This document shows, piece after piece, positions 1,542 through 51,374 of a stretch of 64,000 bases of DNA. Within the stretch, counting starts at the first letter, position 1, and each line of letters starts with the position of its first letter. A program made the position numbers and the translations under genes. This DNA is from Escherichia coli (GTDB taxonomy: Bacteria > Pseudomonadota > Gammaproteobacteria > Enterobacterales > Enterobacteriaceae), in the NCBI RefSeq assembly GCF_024502345.1, contig NZ_JALDNN010000001.1. One strand, 5' to 3'. The notes beneath the pieces were generated by a model. It had not been told where the DNA came from. It searched no databases and worked only from the letters and a program-made list of their open reading frames with translations.

Positions 1542-1904
1542 AATGTCCGTGCCTGTTTATCAGATTATAGGTAAAGGATGCCACAGACAGGATAAAAACA
1601 TGAGTTTTTCACCGCTTTTCGTGAAAATCTTTTGTAGATCTTCTGGATCGCTCGCAAATCGTCATGTGGATAACTTTGTGCATAAATTATTTACATCGCT
1701 TTTAATTTATTATCATGCTTTTTGCAGTATGATGTTTGTCTTTGTTTTTCATGTAGTTAAAAATAAAGCCATCCCTAATAATTGAGATAATGGGATTTTT
1801 TCTAATGTGGATAGATATGAATTATTTTTCTCCTTAAGGATCATCCGTTATTTGGGTCGTTTTCTGCTAAAATCTGCGCCTTGCGCTTCTTTAGCGCACT
1901 GTCT

Positions 1905-2837
1905 ATGGCTAACCTTTTGAATAAATTCATTATGACGAGAATACTCGCTGCGATAACCCTTTTGCTGAGTATCGTATTGACCATTTTGGTCACTATTTTT
2001 TGCTCCGTTCCGATCATCATTGCCGGGATTGTAAAACTATTGCTACCTGTGCCAGTCATTTGGCGAAAGGTTTCGCGTTTTTGTGATTTTATGATGTATT
2101 GCTGGTGTGAAGGTCTGGCGGTATTACTGCATCTGAACCCACACCTGCAATGGGAAGTTCACGGGCTGGAAGGGTTAAGTAAGAAGAACTGGTATCTGCT
2201 TATTTGTAACCACCGTAGTTGGGCAGATATTGTCGTACTGTGCGTGCTGTTTCGTAAGCACATTCCGATGAATAAATATTTCCTCAAGCAGCAGCTGGCC
2301 TGGGTGCCTTTTCTTGGCCTGGCGTGCTGGGCGCTGGATATGCCGTTTATGAAGCGTTATTCCCGCGCTTATTTATTACGTCATCCGGAGCGACGTGGTA
2401 AAGATGTTGAAACCACTCGGCGTTCTTGTGAAAAGTTTCGCCTGCATCCCACCACCATTGTCAATTTCGTTGAAGGCTCCCGTTTCACGCAAGAAAAACA
2501 TCAGCAAACCCACTCCACTTTTCAAAACTTGTTGCCACCAAAGGCGGCAGGCATTGCGATGGCGCTAAATGTACTGGGTAAACAATTCGATAAACTGCTT
2601 AATGTTACGTTGTGTTATCCGGACAATAACCGTCAGCCGTTCTTCGATATGTTAAGCGGTAAACTGACGCGGATTGTCGTACATGTGGATTTACAACCTA
2701 TTGCCGATGAGTTACATGGCGACTACATCAATGACAAAAGCTTTAAGCGCCATTTTCAGCAATGGCTGAACTCACTGTGGCAGGAAAAAGACCGGCTTCT
2801 GACGTCGTTGATGTCATCACAGCGGCAGGACAAGTAA
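1905..2837 (+). CDS. yihG: putative acyltransferase YihG (PlsC family)
   Basis: ORF 1881..2837; the start is probably the internal MANLLNKF at 1905. Membrane N-terminus; position divergent from polA. Confidence 0.8.
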
Positions 2838-2877
2838 ATTTTGCTCGCCTCTGAATGAGCAGAGGCGAGTGAGTATT

Positions 2878-4308
2878 TTAATGAACAAAACGTCCGGCAC
2901 GAGACATAAATTCTTCTTCGCTCATCTCCTGTCCGTTAAAAACAACTTTACCCGGTGTATAACGCAGTTGCAGCGAGGCGGTATTGTTGTCAATCGTGAT
3001 TAACTGAAACATCTGACCTAATGTCATCATCCCGCTGATTTGTTTATCCGCCTGCTTTTGCGCTTTTTCCGCATCCATTCCTTCAGATAAATTAAGCTGT
3101 TTTGCGGTTTCTGTGACGACATTAAGCGGTAACTTCACATCAAAATTGAGCGATTTGATATCTTTGTTTGTGGATGATGAAGATTTGGCTGGGTCGGCAA
3201 TACTGATATCCAGATTGGCATTTAGTTCGCCGAGTGCGTTCTTCCATCTTACCGGTTGTTTAATGGTCGGCTCACTTTTTTGTAATAACGGTAAATACTC
3301 TTTGAACAATGCAGCATTCACTTCTTGCAGAGCAACTTCATCGTTTGCTAACTCAGGGTGTGCAGCAAGCTGCTTCTGCATCGCAATGTTATACTGGATG
3401 ATAAATTGGCGCACTGCTGAGGGATCAATAGATTCAGCAATCAATGACCACTCACCACTACCGAGTTGCTGATTCCCTTTTGTTAACTTATCAAGTTCGT
3501 AGGTCAGATTGACATTGATATAATCTTTGTCTTTAACGCGATCCAGCCTGGTTTTTGCAACGAAAGCATCGATTTGGGCAACGTCTTCCCCGTGATTGAT
3601 AATGTTAATCTGATTAAATTTCGACTCGCTTTCACCAACCGGAAATTTCTTTTCTTCTAATCGCGCCAGAGAATCAATGGTAAAACTTTTTGCCGTTACT
3701 TTGTTCATTGGTGATAATTGCAGAACAATATCTTCGACTTTGCCTTCAATATCCAGGTTAGACAATGAACTACCATCACCATTAAAAGTAAACTGGCCCT
3801 CACCAAAAGAAAACTTTCCATACTCTGCAGGGGCAACATCTAATGTCGTAGAGAATGAGCCACCAAACGCGAATCGCAATGTCGCTTCCACGGGCGATTT
3901 ATTTTTCACGGCGATAAATAGCGGTTGTGTCAGTTCATTATTCACTAAGTTCACTTTTGCCGCTGCCAGTGCTGGGATGACATTACCATGCATTAACATT
4001 GTGATGGGCAACGGACCGTGCTCAACATCCACATCAAATACAACTTTCTGGCCTGGCTTGATATTGAGATCGGGTGCACCGTTATCGAATGTCATTTGCA
4101 TTTGAAAACGAGAATTAAAAAAACCTTTGTCAAAATTTTTATAACTTAACGTCATATCGTAGGCATGTTCACCTTTCTTTTTAGCATCGTTAAAATCTTT
4201 AATAAACTTTTCGACACCAGGCTGAATTTGCGTACCTGTGTACCATGTGCCACCACCCCAGATTACGGCTAACGCAACAATAACACCTGTAGCTGACTTA
4301 CGTATCAT
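2878..4308 (-). CDS. yihF: DUF945-family protein YihF
   Basis: 476-aa ORF with N-terminal signal/TM; position between yihG and dsbA. Confidence 0.8.
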   Translation of the reverse strand: MIRKSATGVIVALAVIWGGGTWYTGTQIQPGVEKFIKDFNDAKKKGEHAYDMTLSYKNFDKGFFNSRFQMQMTFDNGAPDLNIKPGQKVVFDVDVEHGPLPITMLMHGNVIPALAAAKVNLVNNELTQPLFIAVKNKSPVEATLRFAFGGSFSTTLDVAPAEYGKFSFGEGQFTFNGDGSSLSNLDIEGKVEDIVLQLSPMNKVTAKSFTIDSLARLEEKKFPVGESESKFNQINIINHGEDVAQIDAFVAKTRLDRVKDKDYINVNLTYELDKLTKGNQQLGSGEWSLIAESIDPSAVRQFIIQYNIAMQKQLAAHPELANDEVALQEVNAALFKEYLPLLQKSEPTIKQPVRWKNALGELNANLDISIADPAKSSSSTNKDIKSLNFDVKLPLNVVTETAKQLNLSEGMDAEKAQKQADKQISGMMTLGQMFQLITIDNNTASLQLRYTPGKVVFNGQEMSEEEFMSRAGRFVH

Positions 4309-4414
4309 ATAAATATTCCCTGATAAAACAGCAAAACTTTAAATATCCGCTTATGCTGAAATAATGTCCAGCGGCAGGACGCATTATCAGAATGTATTTA
4401 TATTTATTAAATAA

Positions 4415-33181: not shown

Positions 33182-33657
33182 ATGAGTGATATTATTTACC
33201 TGACCATAACCGGAGAACAACAAGGATGTATTTCCTCTCGTTGTGGAACGAGCGCATCAATAGGTAATCGCTGGCAGATTGGCCATGATGATGAAATCTT
33301 CGCGTTCTCGCTCTCTAATAGTATTACGAATACAGGCAAAGGGTCATAATTGCATGGCCTTAGTTTCTGTAAATTGATTGACAAAAGCTCCCCGTTACTT
33401 ATTAACGCTATTAACAATAACGAGCAGTTGTTCATGGAGTTTGACTTCTATCGGATCAATAGGTTTGGTCGATGGGAGAAATATTACAACATTCAACTCC
33501 GCGGCGCGCTCTTATCAGCAATCAATCACCTGTTTACTGAGAACAATCTGGATACAGAAGCCATCACTGTCAGTTATGAATATATACTCTCCAGGCATCT
33601 GATTGCTAATACTGAATTTAGTTATTTGGCATTTCCCGATAACTACAACCGTCTGTT
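33182..33657 (+). pseudogene. Hcp-family (T6SS tube protein) domain, N-terminal part of a disrupted Hcp-fused toxin gene
   Basis: ATG at 33182 gives MSDIIYLTITGEQQG...; the frame hits TAA at 33347-33349 and resumes in the same frame with the Hcp-like stretch FCKLIDKSSPLL. The reading frame then runs into the IS903 end at 33658. Confidence 0.7.
33649..33657. repeat. IS903 target-site duplication, left copy (CCGTCTGTT)
   Basis: The identical 9-mer recurs at 34715-34723, immediately outside the two inverted repeats. Confidence 0.9.
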
Positions 33658-34714
33658 GGCTTTGTTGAATAAATCGAACTTTTGCTGAGTTGAAGGATCA
33701 GATCACGTATCTTCCCGACAACGCAGACCGTTCCGTGGCAAAGCAAAAGTTCAAAATCACCAACTGGCCCACCTACAATAAAGCCCTCATCAACCGTGGC
33801 TCCATAACTTTCTGGCTGGATGATGAAGCTATTCAGGCCTGGTATGAGTCAGCAACACCTTCTTCACGAGGCAGACCTCAGCGCTATTCTGACCTTGCCA
33901 TCACGACTGTGCTGGTCATTAAACGCGTATTCAGGCTGACCCTGCGCGCTGCGCAGGGCTTTATTGATTCCATTTTTTCTCTGATGAACGTTCCGCTACG
34001 CTGCCCGGATTACAGCTGTGTCAGCAGGCGGGCAAAGTCGGTTAATGTCAGTTTCAAAACGCCCACCCGGGGTGAAATCGCACACCTGGTAATTGATTCC
34101 ACCGGGCTGAAGGTCTTCGGTGAAGGCGAGTGGAAAGTCAAAAAGCATGGCCAGGAACGCCGCCGTATCTGGCGTAAGCTGCATCTCGCCGTTGACAGTA
34201 AAACACATGAAATCATCTGCGCTGACCTGTCGCTGAACAACGTTACGGACTCAGAGGCCTTCCCCGGGTTAATCCGGCAAACCCACCGGAAAATCAGGTC
34301 AGCCGCCGCCGATGGCGCTTACGATACCCGGCTATGTCACGATGAACTGCGGCGTAAGAAAATCAGCGCGCTTATCCCTCCCCGAAAAGGTGCGGGTTAC
34401 TGGCCCGGTGAATATGCAGACCGTAACCGTGCAGTGGCTAATCAGCGAATGACCGGGAGTAATGCGCGGTGGAAATGGACAACAGATTACAACCGTCGCT
34501 CGATAGCGGAAACGGCGATGTACCGGGTAAAACAGCTGTTCGGGGGTTCACTGACACTGCGTGACTACGATGGTCAGGTTGCAGAGGCTATGGCCCTGGT
34601 ACGAGCGCTGAACAAAATGACGAAAGCAGGTATGCCTGAAAGCGTGCGTATTGCCTGAAAACACAACCCGCTACGGGGGAGACTTACCCGAAATCTGATT
34701 TATTCAACAAAGCC
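33658..34714 (+). mobile_element. IS903-type insertion sequence (IS5 family), 1057 bp
   Basis: Terminal 18-bp inverted repeats GGCTTTGTTGAATAAATC (33658-33675, and reverse complement at 34697-34714); internal 322-aa ORF; flanked by a 9-bp direct repeat. Confidence 0.9.
33690..34658 (+). CDS. IS903-type DDE transposase
   Basis: 322-aa ORF matching my recollection of the IS903/IS102 transposase. Confidence 0.85.
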   Translation: MKDQITYLPDNADRSVAKQKFKITNWPTYNKALINRGSITFWLDDEAIQAWYESATPSSRGRPQRYSDLAITTVLVIKRVFRLTLRAAQGFIDSIFSLMNVPLRCPDYSCVSRRAKSVNVSFKTPTRGEIAHLVIDSTGLKVFGEGEWKVKKHGQERRRIWRKLHLAVDSKTHEIICADLSLNNVTDSEAFPGLIRQTHRKIRSAAADGAYDTRLCHDELRRKKISALIPPRKGAGYWPGEYADRNRAVANQRMTGSNARWKWTTDYNRRSIAETAMYRVKQLFGGSLTLRDYDGQVAEAMALVRALNKMTKAGMPESVRIA

Positions 34715-34723
34715 CCGTCTGTT
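34715..34723. repeat. IS903 target-site duplication, right copy (CCGTCTGTT)
   Basis: Exact 9-bp match to 33649-33657. Confidence 0.9.
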
Positions 34724-34753
34724 TATACCACGGCCAAAAACTAAAGCTGGTAA

Positions 34754-35395
34754 TGGTTCAAAACACTTAATAGTAAAGCGGTTGGCAGACTGCTTGCTGC
34801 TGGCGGCATATACAATGGGAATATCGAAGGATTCAGGGAAACAGCAGACAAGTTGGGGGGAGATGCACCTGCTGGTTACGATCAATTTATGGATAACAAA
34901 GGGTTACTCATCGCTGGTGCTTCAATAGTTGCTGGAGCAGTTCTGGGGAGAATGAGACTCCCTGATTTGGAATCACTTGAGCATTTCGGAGCCAGAGGAG
35001 CAGTATCAGGAAGACCATTTAATCCCGACCTTGCCGGTGGTCCAATAGAAAATCTGACGACAGATGGCGTAACAATCAACAGGGAAGGTATCGCTATTGT
35101 TGAAAAACACATAGCCAGATTTGGTCATGACCCTGTAAATGAAGTGATGATCAATAGACTGAAAGACATTGAGAAAGGAAAAATCCCCCCAGAACAAGTA
35201 GATCTTAACTTCTATACTCATGAGTGTCGGGAATATCAGCGTTACTGTAATCTTGGTTGGGAAACAGGACAACCTGATGGTGACGCAGGCTATGCACTCT
35301 GGAATCATACGCATACTGCTACTCTAGAAGATTATAAACTTAAGGGAGAACTTAATGACTTATACCACCAGGATGCACTTGACTATGATAACTGA
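34754..35395 (+). pseudogene. toxin-like C-terminal domain of the disrupted Hcp-fused gene (family not identified)
   Basis: Open frame of 213 codons after a stop at 34751; no ATG near its 5' end (the ORF track uses TTG at 34853). It begins with a Gly/Ala-rich linker (GRLLAAGGIYNGNIEGF...DKLGGDAPAGYDQF). It is in a different frame from the pre-insertion Hcp frame. Confidence 0.5.
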
Positions 35396-35630
35396 AACTG
35401 AAATTAACGTACTGAAAGTTATGGCTGAGAAAGATATAAACTGGAACTGGATGAATCTCGATCGCACACTATCCATAAGGCAAATTCCAGGATTCGGTAA
35501 TGTTGTTAACATTGTTAACAAATTAGCTAACGAGGGTTTGGTTATTATTGAGGATAGCGGACATAAGTCTATGCCTCACTACCACGTTACTGAAAAGGGA
35601 TACAATTTCGTGAAAAGTGAGAATAAATAA
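35355..35630 (+). CDS. putative cognate immunity protein (small cytoplasmic protein)
   Basis: 91-aa ORF with AAGGGAGAA Shine-Dalgarno 6 bp upstream of the ATG at 35355; overlaps the 3' end of the toxin-like ORF (alternative ATG at 35385 overlaps its TGA). Confidence 0.5.
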   Translation: MTYTTRMHLTMITETEINVLKVMAEKDINWNWMNLDRTLSIRQIPGFGNVVNIVNKLANEGLVIIEDSGHKSMPHYHVTEKGYNFVKSENK

Positions 35631-35777
35631 CGTAGCGTTGATTACTGAACAAATCGCTCAGGATTATATTTTGCGTAAAAATGATTCGGTTATTTCTGTA
35701 TCTGAACGGGCGCAGATAGCAAAATGGCTTCCGGTGATGGAAGCCATCAGATTATTGGCAAAGTGCGCGTTGTTCAT

Positions 35778-35818
35778 GCCGGATGCGGCGTGAACGCCTT
35801 GTCCGGCCAACAAAACTC
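35778..35818. repeat. REP element
   Basis: gccggatgcggcgtgaacgccttgtccggcc. Confidence 0.7.
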
Positions 35819-49233: not shown

Positions 49234-49737
49234 TTATTGATAGTGTTTTATGTTCAGATAATGCCCGATGACTTTGTCATGCAGCTCCACCGATTTTGAG
49301 AACGACAGCGACTTCCGTCCCAGCCGTGCCAGGTGCTGCCTCAGATTCAGGTTATGCCGCTCAATTCGCTGCGTATATCGCTTGCTGATTACGTGCAGCT
49401 TTCCCTTCAGGCGGGATTCATACAGCGGCCAGCCATCCGTCATCCATATCACCACGTCAAAGGGTGACAGCAGGCTCATAAGACGCCCCAGCGTCGCCAT
49501 AGTGCGTTCACCGAATACGTGCGCAACAACCGTCTTCCGGAGCCTGTCATACGCGTAAAACAGCCAGCGCTGGCGCGATTTAGCCCCGACGTATCCCCAC
49601 TGTTCGTCCATTTCCGCGCAGACGATGACGTCACTGCCCGGCTGTATGCGCGAGGTTACCGACTGCGGCCTGAGTTTTTTAAATGGCGGAAAATCGTGTT
49701 GAGGCCAACGCCCATAATGCGGGCGGTTGCCCGGCAT
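49234..49737 (-). CDS. insB: IS1 transposase InsB reading frame
   Basis: 167 aa, begins [16 protein letters not shown]. Confidence 0.9.
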
Positions 49738-49931
49738 CCAACGCCATTCATGGCCATATCAATGATTTTCTGGTGCGTACCGGGTTGAGAAGCGGTGTAA
49801 GTGAACTGCAGTTGCCATGTTTTACGGCAGTGAGAGCAGAGATAGCGCTGATGTCCGGCGGTGCTTTTGCCGTTACGCACCACCCCGTCAGTAGCTGAAC
49901 AGGAGGGACAGCTGATAGAAACAGAAGCCAC
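49656..49931 (-). CDS. insA: IS1 InsA
   Basis: 91 aa, begins [42 protein letters not shown]. Confidence 0.9.
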
Positions 49932-49986
49932 TGGAGCACCTCAAAAACACCATCATACACTAAATCAGTAAGTTGGCAGCATCACC

Positions 49987-49995
49987 CTCAAATTG
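49987..49995. repeat. IS1 target-site duplication, right copy (CTCAAATTG)
   Basis: Exact match to 49210-49218. Confidence 0.9.
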
Positions 49996-50121
49996 ATATT
50001 GAGCTTAAATATAACCAAGGAAAATGTAAATGAATAACACATTACTTCCATCAATTAATATTCCCTGTACACTTTTCGAAACTATTAGTTTATTTGATGA
50101 TTATTCTGCTGATGATATGCA

Positions 50122-50145
50122 ATATGGTGATATGGTGATATGGTA
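50122..50145. repeat. 8-bp tandem repeat (ATATGGTG x3, last copy imperfect) spanning the start codon of ORF 50140
   Basis: atatggtg atatggtg atatggta; each unit contains an ATG, and only the third is in frame with the long ORF. Confidence 0.8.
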
Positions 50146-50886
50146 GAACAAGATTTTCTCTCACTCGGCCTAAGCGATATCTCAGCAAAAGTTGATCCTT
50201 ACAGACTTATTAAATACCATTTCCCTAGCCCAGGTTCTATTAATGTTGCTTTTAGTGCCTCAAGTTCCGGAACAAAAATATCACAACGTGAATGCACTGA
50301 TATTTTATTTGCAGAAATGAAAGAACTAGCAAAAATGTTTTCCTTTTTTGGACAATATAAAACACTTATCGAAGATCTGATTGAACATTTTAGATATGGA
50401 AATGGCAGCAATTTTCATAGCCAACAATTAAATTTATCTTTTCATGAAAAAATAAATAAATATGGTTATAATAGTCCAATACGAATAATCAAAGAATGTA
50501 TCGAAAATGGCATTAATTCAACTCCCTCGACAGGATACCAACCTCTTATCCTGCAAAGCATTAAAACCAAATTACTTTCATCAAGACTAAATAAATTTAA
50601 TGACTTCGAGGACAGTTTTAATGGCTTAGGAATCAGTGTTCATGATATTTCAGCTCAAAAAATATCTCTTTTAAGTTTTCAAAAATACGCTATAGGATGG
50701 AGTGCAACAATTCATTTTGTAGCACAGGACCACTTCGGTCTTGATGTAACTGATATCAAAAACAAGACTTACAGCAAATATAGATTTTTTCGCATATGGT
50801 TCTTTTTACAACGGCATAAAGACTTTGCTTTCAAACCTTTTTTCACCAATTTTAACACTATCGAAAGAATCGAAAATTATCTATGA
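50140..50886 (+). CDS. hypothetical protein, 248 aa, no signal peptide (candidate effector/toxin of a two-gene module)
   Basis: Long ORF in AT-rich DNA; its stop overlaps the next ORF's start (ATGA at 50883-50886). Confidence 0.5.
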   Translation: MVEQDFLSLGLSDISAKVDPYRLIKYHFPSPGSINVAFSASSSGTKISQRECTDILFAEMKELAKMFSFFGQYKTLIEDLIEHFRYGNGSNFHSQQLNLSFHEKINKYGYNSPIRIIKECIENGINSTPSTGYQPLILQSIKTKLLSSRLNKFNDFEDSFNGLGISVHDISAQKISLLSFQKYAIGWSATIHFVAQDHFGLDVTDIKNKTYSKYRFFRIWFFLQRHKDFAFKPFFTNFNTIERIENYL

Positions 50887-51374
50887 AAAGCAAACTCCAG
50901 AAAATTATATTATGTTTATTTCTTCTATGCTGCATCTATAATTTATGGACATTGCGTCCTGTACAGATTTTGTATACATACTCTGATGCTGGCAATTCAG
51001 TCTTTCTGGTCGTTGATCATCTGCCATGGACTGACAGCGATAAAATAAATTGGTATCTGAAGCATCAGAATGAAATTAAAAATCAACATCCCCTACCAGA
51101 AGGTAGTTGGCATACCTGGTATGTCATTGATATCGGTAATGGCTTCACTGACTATAAAAAATATATCGAAGGGCCGTATGAAGATCTCTACTGTTTCCCG
51201 ACAATTAAGAGCAATGATAATTGCATCGTGAAAAATTACTTAATGGTTATTAATGAATACCCTTATCGTAACACTCATATTGTTATTAACGATTTTACTG
51301 AGTATCAATTAACACAAGAAAATAAAATAGAGCGAGTTTTCAATCCGCATGACTTTAAAAAAGACAATTTTTAG
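50883..51374 (+). CDS. hypothetical exported/membrane-anchored protein, 163 aa (candidate immunity partner)
   Basis: N-terminal MKSKLQKIILCLFLLCCIYNLWTL is a signal or anchor sequence; translationally coupled to the upstream ORF. Confidence 0.5.
   Translation: MKSKLQKIILCLFLLCCIYNLWTLRPVQILYTYSDAGNSVFLVVDHLPWTDSDKINWYLKHQNEIKNQHPLPEGSWHTWYVIDIGNGFTDYKKYIEGPYEDLYCFPTIKSNDNCIVKNYLMVINEYPYRNTHIVINDFTEYQLTQENKIERVFNPHDFKKDNF

Follow-up and report, generated by a model that had tools for sequence, protein, structure and literature searches.

What does the 213-codon open reading frame (ORF) between ysgA and metE of the Escherichia coli contig NZ_JALDNN010000001.1 encode, and can the strain that carries it still make the product? 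The sequence analysed, here called the window, is a 64,000-nt stretch of E. coli chromosome, and all coordinates refer to it. Its gene order, taken from the ORFs of the window and from RefSeq neighbours, is rmuC-udp-ysgA, then the gap in which the frame lies, then metE-metR. In many strains this gap is a small islet in which a tssD (Hcp) gene or pseudogene is annotated, followed by short hypothetical genes, and the islet is polymorphic in E. coli. A first-pass annotation made from the sequence alone had proposed that the frame is a polymorphic-toxin module, possibly of a new family, placed between an Hcp domain and a small overlapping ORF. The region can with some confidence be regarded as a decayed Hcp "extended-toxin" (Hcp-ET) gene, a type VI secretion effector gene that ends in a toxin domain of the carocin D / pyocin G type and is followed by an intact immunity gene. 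The immunity gene alone is likely to be functional.

Translation of 34661-35395 bears out the frame as it was first described. There are two stops, the last ending at 34753, followed by 213 sense codons from 34754 and a stop at 35393-35395. The Gly/Ala-rich hydrophobic stretch (NKGLLIAGASIVAGAVLGRM) and the compact domain that follows it are both present. The frame is the 3' part of an Hcp-ET gene, of which intact alleles are found at the same locus in other strains. The allele of strain 19KM1776 (WP_001280045.1, 382 aa) differs from the window at 1 of the 139 residues of the toxin domain, and a sister allele in strain DA33137 (WP_001521777.1, 377 aa) is approximately 76% identical in this domain. 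The UTI89 toxin gene has an internal stop, while its DA33137 counterpart is intact. The ancestral 382-aa protein consists of an N-terminal Hcp tube domain, a linker of approximately 90 aa that contains the Gly/Ala-rich hydrophobic segment, and an all-alpha cytotoxic domain of 139 aa. A translational fusion of Hcp (PF05638) to the toxin is found in the intact alleles at loci L012 and L013 and in the intact relative P0044, which matches Pfam T6SS_HCP (PF05638) at E 2.8e-12. It is absent from the window, where the gene is a pseudogene with three lesions (Table 1).

Codon 56, which is Gln in the intact alleles, is a stop codon in the window. The second lesion is an insertion sequence (IS) with 33-nt terminal inverted repeats (33658-33690 and 34682-34714) and a transposase ORF of 322 aa (33690-34658) that matches the IS5-family model NF033579 at E 6e-107. 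From its size, the 9-bp target-site duplication and its GGCTTTGTTGAATAAATC ends, we take it to be IS903/IS102-like. The IS is lacking in two loci (L001 and L002) that are otherwise 99.4-100% identical to the window by blastn. The third lesion is a frameshift caused by the deletion of 1 nt in a GGTTTC run, seen as one gap against L002; L001 has the same deletion and aligns without a gap. Expression of the toxin frame as an Hcp fusion is therefore impossible in the window, and no secreted effector can be made there. This triple-hit state had been overlooked. The downstream ORF does exist as first reported, but the frame does not adjoin the Hcp domain, being separated from it by the 1057-bp element and offset by the deletion. 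RefSeq calls the locus a pseudogene in all but one of the near-identical strains inspected.

Table 1. Features of the ysgA-metE gap in the window
Feature	Position	Strand	Basis
Hcp-ET pseudogene, 5' part: Hcp (TssD) domain with premature stop at codon 56 (33347-33349)	33182..33657	+	ORFs 33182-33349 and 33350-33688; tssD pseudogene with internal stop in RefSeq neighbours
IS903-like (IS5-family) insertion sequence, 1057 bp	33658..34714	+	Missing from L001 and L002; inverted repeat; transposase match
Target-site duplication, 9 bp, CCGTCTGTT	33649..33657 (left), 34715..34723 (right)	.	Direct repeat; blastn junctions overlap by 9 bp in L001
Hcp-ET pre-toxin linker, ~90 aa, with 1-nt deletion (GGTT(T)C run, ~34757)	34715..34975	+	Gap against L002, none against L001; translations compared
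213-codon open frame (linker, toxin domain and stop)	34754..35395	+	ORF list, translation
Predicted cytotoxic domain, 139 aa (LEHFGARG...DALDYDN), carocin D / pyocin G / pyocin SX2 type	34976..35392	+	Alignments A1 and A3; AlphaFold; family size
Predicted immunity gene, 81 aa from the RefSeq start (WP_000627421.1); longest ORF from 35355, 91 aa	35385..35630	+	ORF list, RefSeq
Doubtful 58-aa ORF in the interval from the immunity gene to metE	35617..35793	+	ORF list; RefSeq hypothetical protein in L001, not in L002 or L013

The toxin domain itself is widespread. When 1.84 billion cluster representatives (50% identity clusters) were scanned exhaustively with HMMER, 818 representatives of the family were found at E<=1e-3 and 271 at E<=1e-30, and a word-indexed search found relatives of the frame at E 1e-99 to 1e-20, well beyond what chance would give. 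The proteins that contain the domain range from 130 to 5200 aa and nearly always have it at their very C-terminal end; this holds for almost all of the 150 best representatives and for the Hcp-ET alleles that are intact in E. coli. A Pfam scan of 110 full-length carriers identified Pyocin_S (Pyocin_S/IMT) in 46, Cloacin in 5, PAAR in 4, WXG100, PT-TG and LysM in 2 each, and RHS, RHS_repeat, T6SS_HCP, TssD, ColA_N and Col-Pyo_DNase in 1 each. No Pfam family covered the C-terminal toxin domain in these carriers. One carrier that was checked has Cloacin at residues 1-309, Pyocin_S at 501-646 and 749-878, and the toxin domain at 886-1019; another, of 2644 aa, is an Rhs protein with an SpvB-like N-terminus. 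Named sources include Enterobacterales, Pseudomonas, Burkholderiales, Planctomycetes, Chloroflexi, cyanobacteria and Bacteroidota. All AFDB50 matches at E<=1e-12 are family members, with names such as colicin, pyocin, klebicin D activity protein, Colicin-D and PAAR-/RHS-containing, and one, a Citrobacter Hcp-ET, is named 'DUF8093 domain-containing' in UniProt. The variety of the carriers and the C-terminal position are the signature of a polymorphic-toxin domain. Together with the intact Hcp fusions at the locus and the overlapping ORFs downstream of the carriers, this agrees with the module that had first been proposed.

A few metagenomic proteins depart from the C-terminal position. In P0165, P0150 and P0053 it lies internally, ahead of a second toxin domain of nuclease type, which is a Col-Pyo_DNase HNH domain in P0165 and a region with a D...(D/E)AK restriction endonuclease (REase)-like motif in P0150 and P0053. 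Repeated G(A/G)RG motifs are found at the domain boundaries in such proteins, and suggest multi-toxin cassettes or a processing site.

The suggestion of a possible new family did not hold. The key member is the P. aeruginosa protein P0100 (annotated 'pyocin killing protein', 694 aa), which has Pyocin_S followed by the toxin domain and is found by profile A1 at E 5e-47. Its IMT region presumably resembles that of pyocin S2, as stated for pyocin SX2. Directly after P0100 is an 87-aa ORF, MLNLEAIYKNES...FVTEKKYGIV, which begins MLNLEA. Pyocin SX2 has 696 aa and its immunity protein ImSX2 has 87 aa, and the ImSX2 cloning primers encode MLDLEG... and ...EKKYGIV (Premsuriya et al., PMC10422930). Likewise, the ORF beside P0077 reads MMLDLEG...EKKYGIK, and an immunity protein from an E. 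coli plasmid (...KKGPNWKEPQFVSDKKYGIN) is clearly of the same kind as ImSX2. Pyocin SX2, pyocin G, carocin D and carocin S3 are stated to have their cytotoxic domain in common (PMC10422930, PMC7322526), and the cytotoxic domain and immunity protein of pyocin G (PyoG) are homologous only to those of carocin D (Atanaskovic et al., PMC7322526). On the homology to P0100, the length and primer-encoded termini of the ImSX2-type ORF and these statements of a shared domain, the domain in the window is therefore assigned by its sequence to the carocin D / carocin S3 / pyocin G / pyocin SX2 family. It is reasonable that it could not be placed at first, because the family has neither a Pfam-A model in the library used nor a solved structure. 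What is new is the member fused to Hcp of a type VI secretion system (T6SS), the toxin family being already known.

The four bacteriocins were described between 2010 and 2023 and are experimentally toxic (PMC7322526, PMC10422930, PMC7461348). Experiments on PyoG, SX2 and carocin S3 found that the cytotoxicity is neutralised by the cognate immunity protein (PMC10422930, PMC7322526, PMC7461348). Like the window, they have the C-terminal domain, at approximately 135-150 aa, with an immunity gene of approximately 80-90 codons overlapping the toxin stop; identity between the window domain and bacteriocin-type members is 44-48%. They differ from it in delivery, which is through receptor-binding and Pyocin_S/IMT domains in the diffusible pyocins and carocins and through Hcp and a hydrophobic linker (T6SS) in the type found in the window. 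They differ also in immunity, the window protein having no detectable similarity to the ImSX2-type proteins, and in that the toxin gene of the window is a pseudogene. Pyocin_S was absent from the window frame and from the intact Hcp-ET P0044 in the Pfam scans and present in 46 of the 110 carriers; it is a property of the bacteriocin carriers rather than of the toxin domain. The surroundings of the SX2-type pyocin-immunity pair of P. aeruginosa (L008, 5631-7385) are those of a mobile element: upstream of the pair are genes for a Mu-type transposase/TniB or a resolvase, and downstream a SRAP-domain gene and an AcrF3 anti-CRISPR-family gene.

The same domain is found in E. coli in a second setting. 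Small ColE1-like plasmids of E. coli and Klebsiella carry an activity-immunity-lysis operon, as nuclease colicin plasmids do, with a 747-aa product that ends in this domain and a 90-aa immunity protein. In the mobilizable plasmid pS19_141-d (E. coli, L015, 6995 bp), positions 1611-4359 encode a 747-aa colicin-type protein ending in the toxin domain, a 90-aa ImSX2-like immunity protein and a lysis protein. For the activity gene the annotation goes no further than 'S-type pyocin domain-containing protein', but its product has the look of a colicin from E. coli that kills in the pyocin G / carocin D manner. These plasmid colicins are secreted and receptor-dependent, with Pyocin_S domains and ImSX2-like immunity, whereas the copy in the window is chromosomal and of Hcp-fused type.

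Among known T6SS effectors, those closest in organisation are the Hcp-ETs of the Enterobacteriaceae, which, like the ancestral gene of the window, have Hcp, a C-terminal toxin and a downstream immunity gene, here at an orphan locus in E. coli outside the T6SS cluster. As described in reviews of Ma et al. (2017), there are five clans: ET1 (HNH-DNase), ET2 (DUF2235/Tle1), ET3 (Pyocin_S), ET4 (colicin-DNase) and ET5 (papain-like). The toxin domain of the window has no Pfam match to HNH, Colicin-DNase, DUF2235, Pyocin_S or peptidase families and so belongs to none of the clans as these reviews describe them, although their descriptions may omit an unclassified class. The 'Pyocin S3' of Hcp-ET3 is the Pyocin_S/IMT domain and not the present toxin domain. 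T6EC4 of Citrobacter koseri (Geller et al. 2024, PMC11148199) is also Hcp-fused, with a C-terminal domain that lacks Pfam annotation and a downstream immunity gene, but it is a Tox-REase-5 (PD-(D/E)xK-type) nuclease, and the window domain is all-alpha with no such match. In the literature searched there was no paper joining the E. coli Hcp-ETs to the pyocin G / carocin D domain.

Searches with the toxin frame confirmed that it matches no known signature: there was no Pfam-A match even at E<=10, none in NCBIfam or PADLOC, and none to PDB sequences with the single sequence or profiles as query. The structure prediction that had been proposed as a check gave a confident AlphaFold model (pLDDT 92.9), which is all-alpha with six helices and no beta-hairpin, and has no structural neighbour, nuclease or other, among PDB folds. 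In 54 diverse members (alignment A3), G8, G21, G38, H45, R48, R61, D76, H82, E86, R89, W109, H113 and L117 are invariant, and S11, R13, N55, E83, R85, E118 and D119 are nearly so. The window copy keeps every invariant residue, including H45, R48, R61, D76, H82, E86, R89, W109 and H113. In the model H45/R48, H82/E86/R89 and W109/H113/L117 are so spaced that the residues of each group share a face of a long helix, which suggests a polar catalytic cluster between the predicted helices.

Several known toxin classes were considered and rejected. There is no conserved R-x(4-6)-H motif of HEPN and no HxFx(D/E)GNGRxxR motif of Fic in A3. The HNH / colicin-DNase (beta-beta-alpha-Me) class is excluded by the absence of Pfam Colicin-DNase, Col-Pyo_DNase and HNH matches, by the helical model without a beta-hairpin, and by the lack of a nuclease neighbour in the PDB. 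The RefSeq names 'colicin' and 'HNH endonuclease' are unsupported by any model match. The matches to 'Cloacin, colicin-like tRNase domain' fall within the first 309 residues of the carrier and not at its C-terminus. YPK_0952 of Y. pseudotuberculosis, a DNase with PAAR and Pyocin_S and with critical residues F441 and Y450, was compared by these described residues and not by sequence, and its F...Y spacing of 9 is no obvious fit to the family motif.

In the proposed mechanism, the T6SS of a strain with an intact allele would fire the Hcp-toxin into a neighbouring cell, where the C-terminal domain would reach the cytoplasm and attack nucleic acid or otherwise block gene expression. All four long helices would contribute to the catalytic constellation, with H45/R48, R61, D76/H82/E86/R89 and W109/H113. 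The 81-aa cytosolic immunity protein would bind and block the toxin in sister cells. A cytoplasmic target is likely because the Pyocin_S/IMT domain has been reported only with cytoplasm-acting nucleases (PMC9040868) and because the import of pyocin G is FtsH-dependent (PMC7322526). PyoG kills at nanomolar concentration, and its IMT (Pyocin_S) domain, FtsH and TonB1 are needed for entry to the cytoplasm. The toxin would be a cytoplasm-acting enzyme. RNA or translation heads its candidate targets, though tentatively, DNA is a more doubtful second, and others are less probable again.

A metal-dependent DNase that kills by degrading the chromosome is, on balance, unlikely. DNase activity in vitro has been reported for carocin D (as cited in PMC7322526) and for carocin S3 (PMC7461348), the invariant His, Asp and Glu residues could bind metal, and the domain follows an IMT domain, as the DNase domains of colicins and pyocins do. 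Purified SX2 was inactive on DNA with Mg, Zn or Ni, however, under conditions in which SX1 was active (PMC10422930). In the carocin S3 study the immunity protein likewise showed 'DNase activity' (PMC7461348), which suggests a contaminating nuclease and weakens the evidence from that toxin. Neither a beta-beta-alpha-Me, a PD-(D/E)xK nor any other known DNase fold is seen in the all-alpha model. In the tandem proteins described above the domain stands beside an HNH or REase-like DNase, and a DNase activity of its own would be redundant there.

An RNA-directed enzyme (tRNase, rRNase or other translation inhibitor), whose new all-alpha scaffold would support metal-independent acid-base catalysis by His/Glu/Arg, is possible and is held only tentatively. 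Three His, three Arg, one Glu and one Asp are invariant, and such a set resembles the make-up of metal-independent RNase active sites. The tRNase and rRNase domains of bacteriocins also follow an IMT domain. SX2 reduced luciferase output in coupled transcription-translation without DNase activity, but the inhibition was just 50%, compared with 97% for colicin D, and the SX2 had been refolded from 6 M guanidine (PMC10422930). No RNA substrate has been demonstrated for any member of the family, and no HEPN, BECR, Ntox28 or other RNase fold in the PDB resembles the predicted structure.

The linker 5' of the toxin domain raises a further possibility. In the 213-codon frame its conserved part reads KTLNSKAVGRLLAAGGIYNGNIEGFRETADKLGGDAPAGYDQFMDNKGLLIAGASIVAGAVLGRM, with the Gly/Ala-rich hydrophobic segment encoded at about 34898-34957, and the pattern LNSKAVGRLLAAGGIYNGNIEGFRETA.KLGGDAPAGYDQ.MDNKGLLIAGAS.VAG...GRM is conserved in Hcp-ETs. 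This linker is common to P0044, P0045 and P0046 and is also found in 342-375-aa proteins of Mangrovibacter and Enterobacter cancerogenus that have non-Hcp N-termini. Its segment NKGLLIAGASIVAGAVLG is long and hydrophobic enough to span a membrane and the toxin domain is entirely helical, as would suit a pore-forming or depolarising toxin in which both insert into the inner membrane. Such a membrane-active toxin is nevertheless highly improbable. The segment is missing from the pyocin- and colicin-type carriers, which use Pyocin_S/IMT, and the invariant residues are charged or polar and look catalytic. The immunity proteins are small and soluble with no hydrophobic segment, whereas the immunity proteins to pore-formers are membrane proteins. 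In addition, pyocin G requires FtsH-dependent import (PMC7322526). The hydrophobic segment is restricted to the T6SS-type linker and serves delivery rather than killing, and the linker may be a delivery or membrane-entry module that substitutes for the IMT domain in contact-dependent carriers.

The predicted immunity gene is intact in the window and overlaps the toxin stop codon. An overlapping ORF of 79-90 aa lies downstream of the toxin in each of the six carriers examined (L003, L004, L007, L008, L012 and L015), arranged as in the window. The 81-aa protein of the window is 60-78% identical to those after other Hcp-ET alleles and shares 30% identity (E 4e-12) with the product of the ORF that follows a PAAR-fused member in a VgrG-DcrB-PAAR operon of Massilia. 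Pfam-A, NCBIfam, PADLOC and PDB sequence searches gave it no assignment beyond weak winged-helix-like (helix-turn-helix) matches. In DA33137 and UTI89 a cognate 85-aa immunity gene comes after the toxin gene, and an orphan 81-aa gene approximately 90% identical to that of the window comes next. Such a tandem immunity array is typical of polymorphic-toxin loci. The immunity-like genes of the sister alleles lie in tandem at L012 2902-3479 and L011 2901-3478.

These observations bear on whether the locus is a meaningless remnant, with neither the toxin fragment nor the small ORF functional in the window strain. The three independent inactivating lesions and the RefSeq pseudogene flag in nearly all of the close strains are as expected of a remnant, but the immunity ORF is intact in the window and in every allele inspected. 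The orphan second immunity gene has been kept beside the cognate gene of a different allele, which argues for selection for protection, and the single difference among 139 toxin-domain residues from the intact allele indicates recent decay. A remnant is therefore improbable. Because the gene is intact beside a dead toxin gene and is kept as an orphan second gene in sister alleles, it can be argued that immunity is what is maintained in the window. The remaining function would then probably be protection against kin that fire the allele. Homologues of the toxin-plus-immunity stretch are found in 848 of 5426 complete E. coli genomes, with 117 at >=99% identity, and all copies are chromosomal.

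Some points weigh against the decayed Hcp-ET with a carocin D / pyocin G-type toxin as described here. The link to pyocin G and carocin D is made through the statements of the papers and the ImSX2 primer and length match, not through direct alignment with ETV05907.1, EHF11209.1 and ADH95192.1, and in a profile search with source names none of the best 120 was labelled carocin, pyocin G or SX2. BLASTP gave no alignment between the immunity protein of the window and the ImSX2 clade, and hhalign of A4 against A5, both thin alignments, gave a probability of 0.2%. The T6SS-type members would thus use a different, or an unrecognisably diverged, immunity family. T6SS delivery of the Hcp-toxin is putative, and the Hcp-fused proteins have no IMT domain to take the toxin across the inner membrane. 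The SX2 assays and the activity of the carocin S3 immunity protein, both given above, also count on this side. A bolder and rather doubtful extension makes the carocin D / pyocin G-type domain an enzyme of a new, all-alpha fold that acts on RNA or the translation apparatus and is not a DNase. The ysgA-metE Hcp-ETs would then be its first T6SS-delivered representatives, with the hydrophobic linker replacing the IMT domain and with immunity proteins of a family that is not related to ImG/ImSX2.

Between the immunity gene and metE there is a 58-aa ORF that is probably not a real gene. Its 3' end lies inside a repetitive extragenic palindromic (REP)-like palindrome (GCCGGATGCGGCGTGAACGCCTTGTCCGGCC; region 35617-35800), and in other strains a different 40-aa ORF is annotated by RefSeq in its place. 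It has no family matches in the NCBIfam and PADLOC scans. A scan for promoters and terminators found nothing exceeding shuffled expectation.

A second candidate module is found elsewhere in the window, in the region 49234-51374. A minus-strand IS1 (insA/insB-type ORFs, 49234-49931) comes first. After it, on the plus strand beside corA, a 248-aa YPO3983-family ORF (50140-50886; TIGR03034, E 7e-116) overlaps a 163-aa ORF (50883-51374) that is DUF943 by annotation in a near-identical strain. Geller et al. 2024 (PMC11148199) showed for a pair of DUF3289 and DUF943 proteins that they are a colicin-M-like T6SS effector and its immunity protein. Should YPO3983 be equivalent to DUF3289, the window may hold another orphan effector module here.

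The annotation of the ysgA-metE gap should therefore be corrected to an IS-disrupted Hcp-ET pseudogene with a retained immunity gene, in place of the 'colicin' and 'HNH endonuclease' labels. The retained gene fits an immunity-only strategy in T6SS warfare. Three differently named literatures are connected by this locus, those of pyocin G/SX2, the carocins and the E. coli Hcp-ETs. The cytotoxic domain is a very widespread polymorphic-toxin module, present in bacteriocins and in T6SS Hcp, PAAR and Rhs proteins, and type VII secretion is suggested as one more route by the fusions to WXG100. In a family of this kind, with contradictory reported activities, E. coli strains with intact alleles such as 19KM1776 and DA33137 are a tractable system for the mechanism.

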